Source of the DNA: Candidatus Heimdallarchaeota archaeon
GTDB taxonomy: Archaea > Asgardarchaeota > Heimdallarchaeia > Heimdallarchaeales > Heimdallarchaeaceae
DNA length: 7,476 nt
Assembly: GCA_030668875.1 (NCBI GenBank)
Contig: DAOVER010000092.1
Span: 1-7,476, forward strand
Direction: 5' to 3'
In this document: positions 675 through 6,366 of the stretch, one piece after another
How positions within the stretch are numbered: position 1 is the stretch's first letter
Layout: each line of letters begins with the position of its first letter
Notes under the pieces: generated by a model
Seen by the model: only the letters and a program-made list of their open reading frames with translations
Database searches by the model: none
Told to the model about the DNA's origin: nothing
Position numbers and translations under genes: made by a program

Positions 675-1058
675 TTATTTTTTATCAATTATTGTAGTTC
701 CAAATGGCGCGAAAGCAATTCCAACCATTTTGAAATGTTGTTTTGCAAAAGGAATACCGATTATGGTTATTGCAAAAACAACACCTACTATTATGTGTGA
801 GATTGCAAGAACCAATCCGAAAATGATAACCCAAAGCAAATTGATAAGGAATCTTCCTGCTCCACCTTTATCACGCTTAACTTCTCTCCCAAAAGGCCAA
901 ACGACAAAACCCGCCATTTTAATACATTGAAGACCAAACGGAATTCCGATAATTGTTATACATAGAACAATCCCCACTGATCCCCAAGCTATTGCTGTTT
1001 CAAGACCTCCGAGAATGACCCAGAGAATGTTTCCCAGTAAATTTAGCGTTTTACCCAT
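675..1058 (-). CDS. yccF: YccF-domain inner membrane protein (two YccF repeats)
   Basis: Two internal repeats: LGNILWVILGG...LCITIIGIPFGLQCIKMAGFVVWPFG and LINLLWVIIFG...FAITIIGIPFAKQHFKMVGIAFAPFG. This is the typical YccF (PF03733) signature. SD-like AGGTG lies 5 nt before the ATG. Confidence 0.9.
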   Translation of the reverse strand: MGKTLNLLGNILWVILGGLETAIAWGSVGIVLCITIIGIPFGLQCIKMAGFVVWPFGREVKRDKGGAGRFLINLLWVIIFGLVLAISHIIVGVVFAITIIGIPFAKQHFKMVGIAFAPFGTTIIDKK

Positions 1059-1151
1059 AATTACACCTTATCCAAATAAGTTTTAGCTATCTTAATAATT
1101 AATCCTAAACGATGATTAGTTTTTCTCTTCTTAAATTTATTCTATAATTCC

Positions 1152-1213
1152 GTCTCGGGACAAAAACATTTTTATATTCCTCTGAACAATGTAATATTGT
1201 CTCGGGACAAAAA
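1152..1213. repeat. Two exact 15-bp direct repeats GTCTCGGGACAAAAA (1152-1166, 1199-1213); candidate operator pair
   Basis: Read directly from the sequence, 47 bp apart. The second copy extends to the near-perfect palindrome TTGTCTCGGGACAA (1197-1210; 6 of 7 pairs match). Confidence 0.85.
1161..1176 (+). promoter_or_regulatory. Candidate BRE/TATA promoter for the 1217-2125 gene (and possibly actin)
   Basis: A-rich CAAAAA followed by TTTTTATA (1169-1176), about 40-50 nt upstream of the start codons. SD-like GAGTGA at 1215-1220 precedes ATG 1226. Confidence 0.55.
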
Positions 1214-1216
1214 TGA

Positions 1217-2125
1217 GTGATGAACATGAAAAATGAAAAAAAGAAAAGCCCAGGAAGACCAAGAAAATATGATACTAACGCGGAACGAAAAAAGGCCTAT
1301 CGTGAGCGTAAGAAAGAAGCTCATAGCAATTTGGAAGAAAGGGCAAAAAGAATCACGGAATTAAAAGGAAGAATTGATAATATGGAAAGAAAATTGGTAA
1401 AATCGACTTACACGGATCAGCATGTACCTGAAGAAATATCAGAAATACATGAACAAATAAAAGATCGGTCTAGGAAATATGCTCCTTCAGAGCTAATGGA
1501 TTTAGAAATTCATGAGCTTAAACGTATACAATCTGGTATTCATTCTAGATATCATGGAAGCTATTACAACCCTCTACGTGCAGCTCTTGAAAGTGCCATA
1601 ATGCCATCTGTTGATAAAGAATTTGATTCTAGAAAACAGAGTTTAGGAGAAAAACCCTTCGAAGTTATAGTTAAAGAAAAATTAGCTAAACCGAGTGATG
1701 AAGTTACTCCAAAAGCAGATATGAAAACAGAAGAATATTTGCAGAAAGCTAAGGAAAAAGGTTTAGAGGTTTCTGCAGAGGATTTGTCTGTTAAACCATC
1801 CACGATGGAGAAGAAAAATATAACGAGTCCCAAACACTGGAAACATCTGAAAGATATATTTAGGACTGATCAATTATTCGAGGTTTTTCAAGAATTGATA
1901 CTTCTCTACACAGTAGAAGCAGAAATATCTAGACGAGAAAGAGAGGTTGTTCAAACAAAGGATATCGAGAGATTAGAAAGACGTCAAGAAGAACTTGAGA
2001 AAATCATGAAGGATGATAAACTTAGACATGTTAAGAAATTTGTTAACAAAGCAGAAAAAAAGAGGAAATTGATAAAAAATGAAAAGAAAGAAAATAATGA
2101 CGAAAACAATAATAAAGAAACCTAA
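1217..2125 (+). CDS. Hypothetical highly charged protein: N-terminal basic region plus zipper (bZIP-like, putative DNA-binding) and a C-terminal coiled coil
   Basis: 302-aa ORF; the real start may be ATG 1220 or 1226. N-terminus PGRPRKYDTNAERKKAYRERKK is followed by a heptad repeat (L39/I46/I53/L60). C-terminal helix EAEISRREREVVQTKDIERLERRQEELEKIMK. No recognisable enzyme motif. Confidence 0.8.
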   Translation: MMNMKNEKKKSPGRPRKYDTNAERKKAYRERKKEAHSNLEERAKRITELKGRIDNMERKLVKSTYTDQHVPEEISEIHEQIKDRSRKYAPSELMDLEIHELKRIQSGIHSRYHGSYYNPLRAALESAIMPSVDKEFDSRKQSLGEKPFEVIVKEKLAKPSDEVTPKADMKTEEYLQKAKEKGLEVSAEDLSVKPSTMEKKNITSPKHWKHLKDIFRTDQLFEVFQELILLYTVEAEISRREREVVQTKDIERLERRQEELEKIMKDDKLRHVKKFVNKAEKKRKLIKNEKKENNDENNNKET

Positions 2126-2144
2126 GAAATGTAAGATAGAGACC

Positions 2145-2152
2145 AAAGGAGG
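2145..2152 (+). promoter_or_regulatory. Shine-Dalgarno site for actin
   Basis: AAAGGAGG lies 8 nt before TTG 2161, which supports the TTG start. Confidence 0.75.
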
Positions 2153-2160
2153 CATCTAGT

Positions 2161-3297
2161 TTGTCGGACGAACTCCATACCAAACCTCTGGTCTTAGATA
2201 ACGGTACAGGATTTACTAAAAATGGTTTCGGTGGTGAAGATCAACCAAGAAGTGTTTTCCCAACAATAATTGGTTATCCTAAGAACCCCGTTGTTATGCC
2301 TGATGTAGAGGCCTATTTTAGAGAATTTTACATAGGTGAAGAAGCCATGAATATGAGAGGCATTCTAAAACTTCAGTATCCACTAGAACACGGACAAGTC
2401 AGAGACTGGGGTGCTATGGAAAACATTTGGCATTATACTTTCTATAATGATCTCAGAGTAAATCCAAATGAACATCCAATCATGCTTACTGAACCTCCCT
2501 TGAATGATAACAAGAATAAGGAGAAAATGGCTGAGATGATGTTTGAGACGTTCAACGTTCCTGCGTTGTATATCTCAATGCAAGCGATACTCTCTCTCTA
2601 TGCCTCCGGTCGAACGACAGGAATTGTAATTGATATAGGTGATGGTGTTACTCATATTGTGCCAATCTATGAAGGTTTTGCCATATCCCATGCTATTTAC
2701 CGAGCTGATATTGGTGGTCGTGATATCACCGATTATCTAAAAAGATTACTCCGTCAACGTGGGCACTCTCTTACAACTAGTGCAGAGCTGGAAATTGTTC
2801 GAGATATTAAAGAGCGTCTCTGTTACGTACCATTAGATCCTGAAAAAGATTTACGACTAGCTGAGAAAGTCTCTGGTATGGAAAAAACCTATACTTTACC
2901 TGATGGAGATAATCTGACTATTAGTTCTGAAAGATTTATGGCTCCTGAATTACTTTTCAGTCCAGGAGTAATTGGTTCTGAAGAAGCTCCTCTTGATGAA
3001 CTAATCTACAGAATGGTGCAGAATTGTGATGTAGATCTAAGAAGAGATCTGTTTTCAAACATAGTTCTTTCAGGTGGAACAACAATGTTTCCAGGACTTA
3101 AAGAAAGGTTGAACAAAGAATTAATTGATCTAGTTCCAGAAACAACAGAAGTGAAAATAATTGCTCCTCCTGAACGAAGATATTCTGTGTGGATAGGTGG
3201 AAGTATACTTAGCTCCTTGAAAACATTCAAGAAACTATGGGTAACAAAGAAGGAATACAAAGAAATTGGCCCTTCAGCTGTCTATCGTTGTATCTAA
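2161..3297 (+). CDS. Actin (Asgard archaeal, Lokiactin-type), 378 aa
   Basis: Colinear with eukaryotic actin throughout: DNGTGFTK (phosphate 1), YPLEHG, EHPIMLTEPPLN, FETFNVPALY, QAILSLYASGRTTG, DIGDGVTHIVPIYEG (phosphate 2), YTLPDG, VLSGGTTMFPG (adenosine), IIAPPERRYSVWIGGSIL, EYKEIGPSAVYRCI. The GYPK..VM.DVE.Y D-loop and ...RCI terminus resemble Asgard actins as I recall them. There are no introns and the gene has a prokaryotic SD. Confidence 0.97.
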   Translation: MSDELHTKPLVLDNGTGFTKNGFGGEDQPRSVFPTIIGYPKNPVVMPDVEAYFREFYIGEEAMNMRGILKLQYPLEHGQVRDWGAMENIWHYTFYNDLRVNPNEHPIMLTEPPLNDNKNKEKMAEMMFETFNVPALYISMQAILSLYASGRTTGIVIDIGDGVTHIVPIYEGFAISHAIYRADIGGRDITDYLKRLLRQRGHSLTTSAELEIVRDIKERLCYVPLDPEKDLRLAEKVSGMEKTYTLPDGDNLTISSERFMAPELLFSPGVIGSEEAPLDELIYRMVQNCDVDLRRDLFSNIVLSGGTTMFPGLKERLNKELIDLVPETTEVKIIAPPERRYSVWIGGSILSSLKTFKKLWVTKKEYKEIGPSAVYRCI

Positions 3298-3304
3298 CTC
3301 CTAA

Positions 3305-3326
3305 TTTTCTATTTTTTTCTTTTTTT
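3305..3326 (+). terminator. Candidate oligo-T terminator of the actin transcript
   Basis: TTTTCTA-T7-C-T7 starts 8 nt after the actin stop codon. Confidence 0.6.
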
Positions 3327-4634
3327 CCAAACATAACTTGTTAGTACAATTATTCCTAATAATACAACTCCAGCTGATGTTGAGCTGATAATAATCGTGA
3401 GACTATTTGATGTTCCATCAAAGATGTTCAAAGCTTTTGTCATACTATCTAGAAAACATTCAAAATCTTCCTCTAGAAAGCTATTAATTGCCTCTCGCTG
3501 GTATTTCTCAGATTTTGCTAGAACTCTTTCTGAATTGCTAGAAGATTGATCTCCAATCATTTCTTTATTATACTCCCAGATATTTTTCGTCAGATTAATT
3601 GCTTGGTCAAAATTGTTTTGCGTAGTCGTAGTCTGATAATAATCTATTGAACACCTATCTCCTACAATCCCCCATAGAACAGCAGGGTTTGTTGTTCCCC
3701 AATAAACAACCCATCCGTTATAGTGGCTCAAACCATTTTGAACACTTTGAGAATTTTCCTCACTTGGATTTATACAATAAGTAATTGTTGTTGAGTGAAA
3801 CGGCCAAGGTGTTTCACCACCTGTTGATTCTGACCTTACCTATCCATAAGGATGAAGGTAGAATTCGATAAGATAATGAATTAATGGTCCTATGAAAATG
3901 GATCGAGCAGGAATCCCAAGCGATCTTAGAAGAGCTACTGCTAGATTTGCTTTACCAACACAAACCCCCGACCCTTCTTGTAGAACTGTAAGAGCATCAT
4001 GGGCACTGCTGTAACCAAATATGACACCATTACCCGTGAAGTTAGATATAGTTTCAACAATAGTAACTGCGTTTGTGTCACTTCCAATAAGTTCTACAGC
4101 TTTTGAAGCTATCTCGGGATTATCGCTTTGGACATATTCTGTACTTTCCAGCCAGCCAATCACCTCTTCAGGCAATAGATACTCGGGAGTTATTGAAGCA
4201 TCGGAAGGTAAATCATCAAATTTATTGTACTCAATAAGAACTGGTACATTCCAGTAGATATAAACAACATCTGTGTTCTCTAGATTATTTATTGAAACTT
4301 CTAATAGCGAATTTCCAGAGGAATAATTGGATGATATTCTATAATCCTCTATAATATCTATTGGATTAGAATAAACTGAAAGAATAATTGGTGCTTGATT
4401 TAGATGAGCTATAGGTATGTGCATATAAATCTTAAAAGGACCAGTATCCGGTGATGCTGCTTGTATAGCAAAACACCCTGAAACGTTATACAAATAGACC
4501 TTTTTATCAACCGAAGTTGTTTGTTTGGTGCTGATTTCAGATGATTCTGGTGATAAATTTTGAGTTACAGTTAGTTGAATTCCTATTATCAAAATCACGA
4601 AAACAAATTTCCAAACATTTCTGGAACTACGCAT
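3309..4634 (-). pseudogene. Membrane-anchored/secreted transglutaminase-like (Cys-His) protein, 441 codons, interrupted by one in-frame TAG at 3840-3842
   Basis: ORFs 3840-4634 and 3309-3731 are in the same frame, and the 36 codons between them are open (VRSESTGGETPWPFHS...VQNG). Features: N-terminal signal peptide (RNVWKFVFVILIIGIQL); YVQSDNPEIASKA..L; TL..GSGVCVGKANLAVALLRSLGIPAR (catalytic Cys); IHYLIEFYLHPYG*VRSEST (His, then the G-W-x-x-x-D/E-x-T position); C-terminal TM helix plus KKRKK. It may be a true nonsense allele, a sequencing error or a readthrough gene. Confidence 0.8.
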
Positions 4635-5295: not shown

Positions 5296-6366
5296 GTGGT
5301 TCACACTATGAAGGATGTTAAAATAATAATTCCAGCGGATAAGCTGGATATTGTTAAGGAGTTAGATGAAAAACTTGCAATTGTCTTCAATGTGACAATT
5401 TTCGAGGAAATCGCTACTCTCCATACAGTTGTAGAAAATCAACAAACCTCAATTTTACTTGAAGAATTAAAAGGGTTAGGCGTTGGGACAGTGTTTGGAA
5501 GTATAACAGTAACACCCATTGCTTTAACCATATCCTCTGACAAAAAGGAAGTTTCTGTAAAAGGAAGAGGGATAAGTACAGATGAAATGATTGCAGATAT
5601 CAAAGGTCTTGCCTTACTCAATCCTACTTTCTTAGCTCTAGTATTTTTAGCGGGGATTCTCTCATCCTTTGGTTTGATCTTCAACAATGTTATAATTGTT
5701 ATCGCAAGTATGATAATAGCTCCTCTGCTAGGTCCGATAGCACTAACAGTATTGGGCACTATGACTCCTAAGAATATTTATTCGAAAAAAGCAATATTGG
5801 CCGAATTAGTAGGATTGATGATTATCATCATTATAGGTTTTATCGTTGGTGCGATATATAATTGGACAGAACCGGGATCCATGCTTGTGTATGATGAGAC
5901 ACTTGAGATATTTACGATAGCTAGTGAGCAGATAGATATTAGAATCGATCCTGGTATTGGAGACATCATTTTTGCAATAGCTAGTGGCTTAGCTGCTGGA
6001 CTTTTTATTATCCGAGGTGAAAGTACATCTATCGTAGGAGTAGCAGTCGCTGCATCATTGTGCCCTCCAGCTGCTAATGTGGGTGTTCTCTTAGCAAATG
6101 TTGCCAACCCAGATTTCCAATTCCTTCAAGCTGCACTGGGATCATTGATATTGCTGATTTTGAACGTGATTTCTATCTATGCGTCATGTGCACTCATCTT
6201 CTGGGTCTCACAATCATTTGTAAGAGGAGGATCAGTATCAACAAGACAATTTAGAAAAATCAGTAAAATATACTTTACACAGATTGTACTGACTTTTCTT
6301 ATCCTAATGTTGATCATAGTGTTCATTATACTGGATAATCAATTTGGTTGGCTAAAGTTCAACTAG
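5296..6366 (+). CDS. TIGR00341 / DUF389 family multi-pass membrane protein
   Basis: N-terminal soluble alpha/beta domain (MKDVKIIIP...ILLEELKGLGVG..FGSITV), then IASMIIAPLLGPI, DIIFAIASGLAAG, IVGVAVAASLCPPAANVG and L..LNVISI, which are typical DUF389 motifs. The start may be ATG 5308. It ends TAG-TGA-TAG. Confidence 0.9.
   Translation: MVHTMKDVKIIIPADKLDIVKELDEKLAIVFNVTIFEEIATLHTVVENQQTSILLEELKGLGVGTVFGSITVTPIALTISSDKKEVSVKGRGISTDEMIADIKGLALLNPTFLALVFLAGILSSFGLIFNNVIIVIASMIIAPLLGPIALTVLGTMTPKNIYSKKAILAELVGLMIIIIIGFIVGAIYNWTEPGSMLVYDETLEIFTIASEQIDIRIDPGIGDIIFAIASGLAAGLFIIRGESTSIVGVAVAASLCPPAANVGVLLANVANPDFQFLQAALGSLILLILNVISIYASCALIFWVSQSFVRGGSVSTRQFRKISKIYFTQIVLTFLILMLIIVFIILDNQFGWLKFN

Follow-up and report, generated by a model that had tools for sequence, protein, structure and literature searches.

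What is the role of two short palindromic boxes that bracket a putative TATA box upstream of an actin-linked gene in an Asgard archaeon, and which protein reads them? The window analysed here is an entire contig of 7,476 nucleotides (DAOVER010000092.1; C16 in our numbering) from a Candidatus Heimdallarchaeota archaeon of the family Heimdallarchaeaceae, represented by a 3.23-Mb metagenome-assembled genome (GCA_030668875.1; 34% G+C, 92% complete). The boxes precede a gene that we call bz, whose product is a candidate DNA-binding protein, and bz is followed by an actin gene. An initial annotation of the window had proposed that the boxes are binding sites for a dimeric repressor, plausibly the bz product itself. 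Following up this proposal, we conclude that the two repeats (O1 and O2) probably constitute the operator pair of the regulator-actin operon promoter, and that this promoter is autoregulated, most likely negatively, by the bz product. This judgement is drawn from comparative sequence analysis, set out below together with four other explanations of the boxes.

The exact double occurrence of GTCTCGGGACAAAAA reported by the annotation was confirmed at positions 1152-1166 and 1199-1213, with starts 47 bp apart, and two matches to this sequence were found in 0 of 200 dinucleotide-preserving shuffles. Both repeats lie inside the 167-nt spacer between bz and the divergent yccF gene (1059-1225), which is indeed AT-rich (28% G+C, against 34% for the genome). 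Searching the 3.23-Mb genome with the core GTCTCGGGAC and with the looser pattern GTCNCGNGAC returned these two sites only, and no further non-coding site within two mismatches of the box consensus TTGTCYCGRGACAA was detected in the genome. The search was extended to 24 genomes of the genus with the pattern TGTCYCGRGAC, where all non-coding matches fell in promoters of bz orthologues (including a box pair in genome G013, the promoter of an orthologue cut by a contig end). The five remaining matches were all within long open reading frames (ORFs); the reversed control pattern produced 14 matches. A dispersed repeat or insertion sequence (IS) scar, which the annotation had named as grounds for abandoning its proposal, is thus ruled out, as non-coding copies of the box are restricted to this locus in the genome and to orthologous promoters across the genus.

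The boxes had been described as a dyad with 5-bp arms, TTGTC-TCGG-GACAA. This holds for copy 2, whereas copy 1 reads CCGTC...GACAA and retains only 3-bp arms (GTC/GAC). In orthologous promoters both copies extend to dyads of 14-18 bp (e.g. TTTTGTCCCGGGACAAAA), with perfect 18-bp dyads in some species, and the consensus is often lengthened to TTTT...AAAA. Across species and boxes the centre reads TCGG, CCGA, TCGA or CCGG, such that each half-site is independently GTCY and imperfect forms occur in both orientations between species. Because the half-sites vary independently, we regard the element as a true dyad; recognition by a symmetric protein dimer predicts exactly such a pattern. The consensus and its half-site variation are therefore suited to a dimeric binder, as would be expected of an archaeal promoter-proximal operator.

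The same symmetry might serve an RNA-level element, for example a 5'-leader hairpin with an influence on translation or stability, since the predicted leader would contain O2 in its first 15 nt and the two arms of O2 could base-pair. We regard this as scarcely credible. O1 lies upstream of the TATA box and would not be transcribed from this promoter; the box arms never covary, and the frequent CCGA centre would introduce a C.A mismatch. Moreover, the leader (1195-1260) folds no better than its shuffles (-3.8 kcal/mol, z +0.73), the box hairpin does not appear in the minimum free energy structure, and an Rfam search of positions 1000-1400 found no family (the best hit, at chance level, reached 23 bits, where the gathering score is 100).

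Orthologues of bz were identified in both genomes of a sister genus and, within the genus itself, in 18 of 23. As the annotation had anticipated, the motif is conserved upstream of them: both boxes are present in every readable orthologous promoter of the genus. In an alignment of 14 orthologous promoters from 14 species, mean pairwise identity was 0.83 for box 1 and 0.84 for box 2, compared with 0.76 for the TATA box, 0.49 for the spacer between the TATA box and box 2, and 0.29 far upstream, placing both boxes above the neutral background of spacer and flanks (0.29-0.49). The geometry is equally well kept. Orthologues retain the TATA offset as TTTTTATA or TTTTTAAA, with the start of O1 fixed at 17 nt before the start of the TATA box. 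The start of O2 follows that of the TATA box by 29-30 nt, and the distance between O1 and O2 is 46-47 bp in most species.

In nearly all orthologues O2 also begins ~27 nt before a conserved ATG, which corresponds to position 1226 of the window. The annotated start of bz, a GTG at 1217, needs revision accordingly: it is more likely part of a Shine-Dalgarno sequence (GAGTGAT, 1215-1221). Mean pairwise identity of this GTGA(T) motif was 0.86, and the conserved GTGAT more likely represents the ribosome-binding site than a start codon. A seven-codon upstream ORF (1213-1236; ATG at 1213, TGA at 1234) begins within box 2 of the window; it is not conserved, orthologues reading AAAATAAAGTGAT instead, and is probably meaningless.

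It had also been suggested that the boxes might affect the divergent yccF gene. We find no support for this, as only the four closest genomes have yccF upstream of bz and other species have different genes at this position. The boxes stay with bz whatever lies upstream, and the module therefore belongs to bz rather than to yccF.

The position of the boxes relative to the core promoter bears on the direction of regulation. In archaea, binding sites that lie downstream of the B recognition element (BRE) and TATA box and overlap the transcription start repress by blocking recruitment of RNA polymerase, while sites upstream of the BRE and TATA box accompany activation (PMC4158304); such positional rules have been stated in general form (PMC12993045). 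Box 2 starts 20-21 nt past the TATA box, and with the TATA box centred at ~1174 transcription would be expected to start at ~1199-1203, within box 2. The 3' A-tract of box 1 (1162-1166) coincides with the expected BRE position. Protein bound at O2 would block RNA polymerase recruitment, and protein bound at O1 would meet or displace TFB/TBP; recruitment of TFB from O1 appears less likely. Under the positional rules, an O2 over the start and an O1 reaching the BRE favour negative autoregulation. The repeats, their restriction to this locus, their conservation, their fixed geometry and their covariation with the protein family (described below) are observed, while binding, dimerisation, the start site and the sign of regulation are inferred; the most likely outcome would be negative feedback on the regulator and, where the two are linked, on an actin paralogue.

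The same protein and operators might instead operate in positive feedback or as a switch, with O1 recruiting TFB/TBP and O2 capping expression at high protein concentration. The archaeal activators Ptr2, TFB-RF1 and TrmBL1/Tgr do act from sites upstream of the BRE/TATA (PMC4158304), and every subfamily of bz relatives described below has a palindrome against an A-tract and TATA box. Furthermore, O1 is more variable than O2 (with centres TCTG and TCAG), which could mean that the two sites differ in affinity. However, O1 and its A-tract do not lie clear of the BRE position but extend over it, which would favour competition with TFB, and we consider activation or a switch unlikely.

The candidate binder, bz, begins with a lysine-rich tail, followed by an invariant G-R-P (PGRPRKY, nt 1250-1270), the motif [ND]AERKKAYRERKK and a series of heptads. 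The basic helix and heptads occupy residues 18-63 (nt 1277-1414) with the spacing N18-x7-R26-x9-L36-x6-I43-x6-I50-x6-L57, in which N18...R26 represents the N-x7-R/K signature of basic leucine zipper (bZIP) basic regions. AlphaFold2, run with 36 sequences, predicted a disordered arm (residues 1-17), a single continuous helix from 18 to 63 (predicted local distance difference test, pLDDT, ~80), then a middle region that is also helical and finally a long helix at the C terminus (210-298), with no strand. The heptad residues L36, I43, I50 and L57 thus follow R26 in register on one continuous helix, as in bZIP proteins; one subgroup has a one-residue shift after the first heptad. A head of this kind (GRPRKY...KAYRERKK) is found in a single protein of the genome.

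A profile built from 21 family heads (A5) was searched against the PDB and returned the bZIP structures 7aw7_D (E 2.3e-4, 24 bits) and then Pap1 (1gd2_E, E 0.015) as top matches, followed by generic coiled coils, so that these scores are borderline and composition bias is possible. The alignment places A-Y-R-x-R-K-K of the family against A-F-R-x-R-K of the bZIP structures and runs from the basic region into the zipper. Among the same 21 heads, Pfam matches at E<=1 were obtained with bZIP_1 for 14 (best E 3.8e-5), with bZIP_2 for nine and with AT_hook for eight (best 0.0017). No family scored above its cut-off when the whole bz protein was compared with Pfam, the full-length alignment (A2) gave no significant match in a PDB profile search, and Foldseek found no match to the AlphaFold2 model in the PDB at E<=0.001. 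When ten longer proteins with a head-like motif were submitted to Pfam, one was annotated (a GntR/FCD regulator with a C-terminal AT-hook) and no known family was assigned to the head. A two-copy prediction of residues 1-72 with alignment A2 scored 0.10, below the mark of 0.42, and counts neither way.

On these comparisons we call the head bZIP-like, preceded by an AT-hook-like arm, but do not class it as bZIP, since the family cut-off is not reached and the signature asparagine is mostly aspartate. The annotation's view of the neighbouring protein as a plausible dyad binder is strengthened by the AT-hook-like arm, the long basic helix with heptads and the bZIP structures at the top of the profile search. 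The putative operator would consist of the 10-bp core palindrome GTCYCGRGAC within the longer TTTT...AAAA dyad, and the bz product would most likely bind each operator as a dimer. The boxes are flanked by TTTT/AAAA; the GRPRKY arm would occupy the flanking A/T minor groove on each side of the dyad, while the bZIP-like basic helix, with the coiled coil next to it, would read the GTC half-site, whose GTC/GAC arms are invariant, in the major groove.

Relatives of bz allowed the proposed pairing of protein and site to be compared across a family. A class-wide search of 82 Heimdallarchaeia genomes located the head family in 35, a single genome having as many as nine paralogues; it is spread over genera g1 and g2 (of one taxonomic family) and g17 (of another), with a few matches in g14. 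For each fetched paralogue locus, the head was set against the 170 nt that precede the gene encoding it. Members of the family in g1, g2 and g17 have a pair of palindromes in their own promoters, and the half-site follows the residue at position 5 of the basic region (K22 in the window protein). Heads reading R-K-[KR]-A-Y-R at positions 4-9 accompany GTC-N4-GAC; these are the bz orthologues, the g2 paralogue L027, whose box 1 and TATA box are identical to those of the window, and L054 and L067, distant 197-aa paralogues from another taxonomic family. Two subfamilies of 207 and 202 aa with R-Q-[KR]-A-Y-Y have GTA-N4-TAC (e.g. GTAATATTAC, GTATAAATAC), and heads with R-S-R-A-Y-Y or R-Y-K-A-Y-Y have GTG-N4-CAC (GTGTTATCAC, GTGTTAACAC). 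The sister-genus orthologue L022, with K-Q-K-A-Y-R-Y, has GTAACGTTAC twice, bracketing the TATA box. In every subfamily one palindrome adjoins an A-tract and a TATA-like element. The background frequency of such palindromes is 0.007-0.04 per 170 nt (0.007 for GTC-N4-GAC).

In a maximum-likelihood tree of 48 full-length members, changes at position 5 and changes of box class fall on the same branches, three of each. These three concordant switches, in which changed basic regions go with changed palindromes in their own promoters, lend independent, comparative support to the autoregulation that the annotation had proposed, because an unrelated factor acting in trans would not be expected to give new, subfamily-specific and well-kept palindromes. 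They bear directly on whether the boxes might be operators of another dimeric transcription factor encoded elsewhere. In favour of such a factor, bz cannot be assigned to any curated DNA-binding family at Pfam thresholds and its binding is a prediction. On the other hand, the boxes travel with bz even where the genes on both sides have changed, and in 24 genomes no other non-coding site has them. A trans-acting factor is unlikely to have one target only, invariably beside members of one gene family, and the distinct palindromes of the paralogue subfamilies track their own basic regions. We consider this explanation improbable.

The AYH subfamily is an exception to the simple correspondence: a hybrid box, GTAGTRAGAC, adjoins its TATA box, and GTCTCGGGAC is found distally. 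At four g17 loci (L045, L047, L048 and L051) an exact TTTTGTCTCGGGACAAA box lies in a divergent spacer, ~153 nt upstream of an AYHERKK-type paralogue. The hybrid box, with one GTA half and one GAC half, and the nearby exact box hint at cross-regulation or heterodimers among paralogues. In g17, several paralogues are clustered within a few kb and include head-only versions of 54-56 aa (G077:C13:12356-18753, which is L068; G075:C345; G074:C96).

Table 1. Positions of the promoter elements and genes discussed, in window coordinates
Feature	Position	Strand	Remarks
Divergent yccF gene	675-1058	-	Upstream neighbour of bz
Operator box 1 (O1)	1150-1166	.	Core GTCTCGGGAC at 1152-1161; 3' A-tract at 1162-1166, also the BRE position
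TATA box TTTTATATT of the regulator-actin operon	1170-1178	+	Read from the sequence; offset conserved in orthologues; putative function from the archaeal consensus
Operator box 2 (O2)	1197-1213	.	TTGTCTCGGGACAA and A-tract; core at 1199-1208
Shine-Dalgarno-like GAGTGAT	1215-1221	+	Ahead of the conserved start; putative role
Regulator gene bz	1226-2125	+	299 aa counted from the conserved ATG; candidate DNA binder
bz-actin junction	2126-2160	+	35 nt; Shine-Dalgarno sequence AAAGGAGG at 2145-2152; no TATA box
Actin gene	2161-3297	+	TTG start, 378 aa; Pfam PF00022, E 1.1e-130
DUF389 gene	5296-6366	+	Adjoins the regulator gene in actin-less species

Several orthologous promoters have undergone rearrangement or divergence. 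A ~100-nt tandem duplication upstream of the L016 regulator gene has created a second box 1 and TATA box, and a short duplication in the L014 promoter (a 13-nt repeat, TTATATTGTCTCG) adds half a box. At L013:2350-2485 (-), an odd-length 9-bp box 2 and a variant box 1 accompany a changed basic region, AKERKRAYRERKK; this pair of even- and odd-length sites recalls the cAMP response element (CRE) and AP-1 sites of bZIP factors.

We then considered how the boxes relate to actin. The junction between bz and the actin gene (Shine-Dalgarno sequence, TTG start, no TATA box) is kept in eight other species, and in two species (L016:1470-1485 and L017:2360-2372) the first codon of actin falls within the regulator ORF, 8 nt from its 3' end (..AAAGATGACAGTTGA..), overlaps that suggest translational coupling. 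The conserved TATA-less junction and the overlapping ORFs argue for co-transcription of bz and actin. Among 14 assessable species, however, actin follows bz in nine, whereas in five DUF389 or other genes take its place and the boxes are kept. Since actin-less species have DUF389 directly after the regulator, the actin gene and two minus-strand genes (3309-4634) behave as a presence/absence block. In the sister genus only a remnant of actin is found, and the box sequence has changed to GTAACGTTAC. The remnant (L021:2403-2540 (+) and L022:1338-1470 (-)) joins the first ~20-37 codons to the last ~31 by internal deletion. The window genome encodes a second close actin paralogue (C78:7349-8458 (-)), 83% identical, with a TATA-like element of its own and no box; a third member of the actin family, more distant, is encoded at C29:32203-33435. 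Because the boxes persist without actin, they appear to be first of all the regulator's own predicted operators, which, where the genes are linked, would also control one actin paralogue.

Linkage of a DNA-binding protein to an actin invites a further comparison. In the ParR-parC-ParM locus of plasmid R1, repeats bound by protein lie on either side of the promoter from which a DNA binder and an actin-fold ATPase are expressed, and binding also autoregulates. By analogy, the boxes could be a centromere-like site at which a coiled-coil protein couples the locus to actin filaments, with repression as a side effect. The layout here does recall R1 parC, where sites flank the promoter of the adaptor and actin-fold ATPase operon, and bz has a conserved middle domain and the long C-terminal helix (210-298). 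Nevertheless, there are two palindromes rather than ten direct iterons, and thus no iteron array; the predicted model is all-helical without strand, in contrast to the ribbon-helix-helix (RHH) ParR of type II (ParMRC) systems; and the actin is a canonical, eukaryote-like PF00022 member (E 1e-130), not ParM-like, with MreB_Mbl matching only at E 4e-4. Gene order is reversed relative to R1 and the contigs are chromosomal. The boxes are retained in the five of 14 assessable species that lack actin, the sister genus combines an actin remnant with boxes of different sequence, and paralogues that share this promoter layout are not linked to actin. A role as a centromere is accordingly very unlikely. 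Neither another trans-acting factor, nor a centromere-like site, nor an RNA element accords with the covariation, the persistence of the boxes where actin is missing and the lack of an RNA signal.

A number of observations weigh against an operator pair autoregulated by bz, or against parts of that proposal. The start site was placed from the position of the TATA box alone, as the public sequencing runs listed comprise DNA from marine sediment and cold seeps and none of RNA, and a centre distance of 46-47 bp would put the two boxes on roughly opposite faces of the helix, where cooperative looping is not obviously favoured. Some promoters depart from the common arrangement: at L013 both boxes differ, O1 being a variant (GTGACGGGAC) and O2 only 9 bp long (GTCTCAGAC), and L015 has ~75 nt inserted between the TATA box and O2, leaving box 2 far from the TATA box. 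On the protein side, the bz head scores below the cut-offs of Pfam bZIP_1 (PF00170) and bZIP_2 (PF07716), reaching 11 bits (E 0.48-0.73) against 27.6 for bZIP_1, and the signature asparagine is aspartate in most orthologues and another residue in several subfamilies. The covariation comprises only three independent switches, and as duplicated genes inherit their promoters, part of it reflects shared descent. Finally, some family members deviate from the two-palindrome rule: L026 retains a single, degenerate box, a half-palindrome (GTCCCGAGTC) is all that L055, L062 and L064 show, and no box was found in the upstream regions of L058 and L063.

In several respects the locus resembles systems that are already understood. 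Operators next to the TATA box are familiar from archaea; those of TrmBL1/Tgr (TGM), MDR1 and Phr are likewise short palindromes against the core promoter (PMC4158304), and they include a case in which a regulator controls its own promoter, as proposed here for bz. The binders in those systems are winged-helix or helix-turn-helix (HTH) proteins, whereas bz combines an AT-hook-like arm, a basic helix and a coiled coil in an all-helical protein of no curated family, and its regulon, unlike theirs, appears to be a single promoter.

Eukaryotic bZIP proteins of the Pap1/Yap type (1gd2, 7aw7) offer the closer parallel on the protein side, with a basic helix that likewise runs into a heptad coiled coil. 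The boxes are even-length 10-bp palindromes with a central CG, like CRE/PAR-type sites, and the sister-genus box GTAACGTTAC has an ACGT core. Position 5 of the bz head, the residue that tracks half-site changes, would fall where bZIP basic regions contact bases in the GCN4 and Pap1 complexes. The differences are also substantial: bz has an AT-hook-like arm before the basic helix, a longer half-site (TTGTCYC), ~230 aa without bZIP counterpart, and a signature asparagine that is mostly aspartate or absent. The likeness may reflect homology or convergence.

In summary, we have described a pair of conserved palindromes, specific to the promoters of one gene across a genus, that most plausibly serve as operators for the product of that gene. 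A full-text literature search found no description of this regulator, of its boxes, or of a bZIP-type factor in Asgard archaea. While bacterial-type HTH proteins dominate archaeal regulation, the candidate binder described here is unusual, coming from an uncharacterised family restricted to Heimdallarchaeia with a head that is closest to eukaryotic bZIP domains.

Looking ahead, the paralogues provide a natural specificity-swap series of matched protein and site variants, and the boxes offer a concrete handle on the regulation of cytoskeletal genes in Asgard archaea, as the operon carries one of two actin paralogues in many species. We raise, as a tentative and still doubtful possibility, that Heimdallarchaeia hold a genuine bZIP-type family (AT-hook arm, basic helix and zipper) with a recognition code, readable from the promoters of its own members, in which K, Q or S at position 5 specifies GTC, GTA or GTG, respectively, and that one member is a dedicated, autoregulated controller of an actin paralogue. 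If true, this would give bZIP factors a prokaryotic root, in close archaeal relatives of eukaryotes, and would constitute the first cis/trans pair for the regulation of an Asgard cytoskeletal gene.

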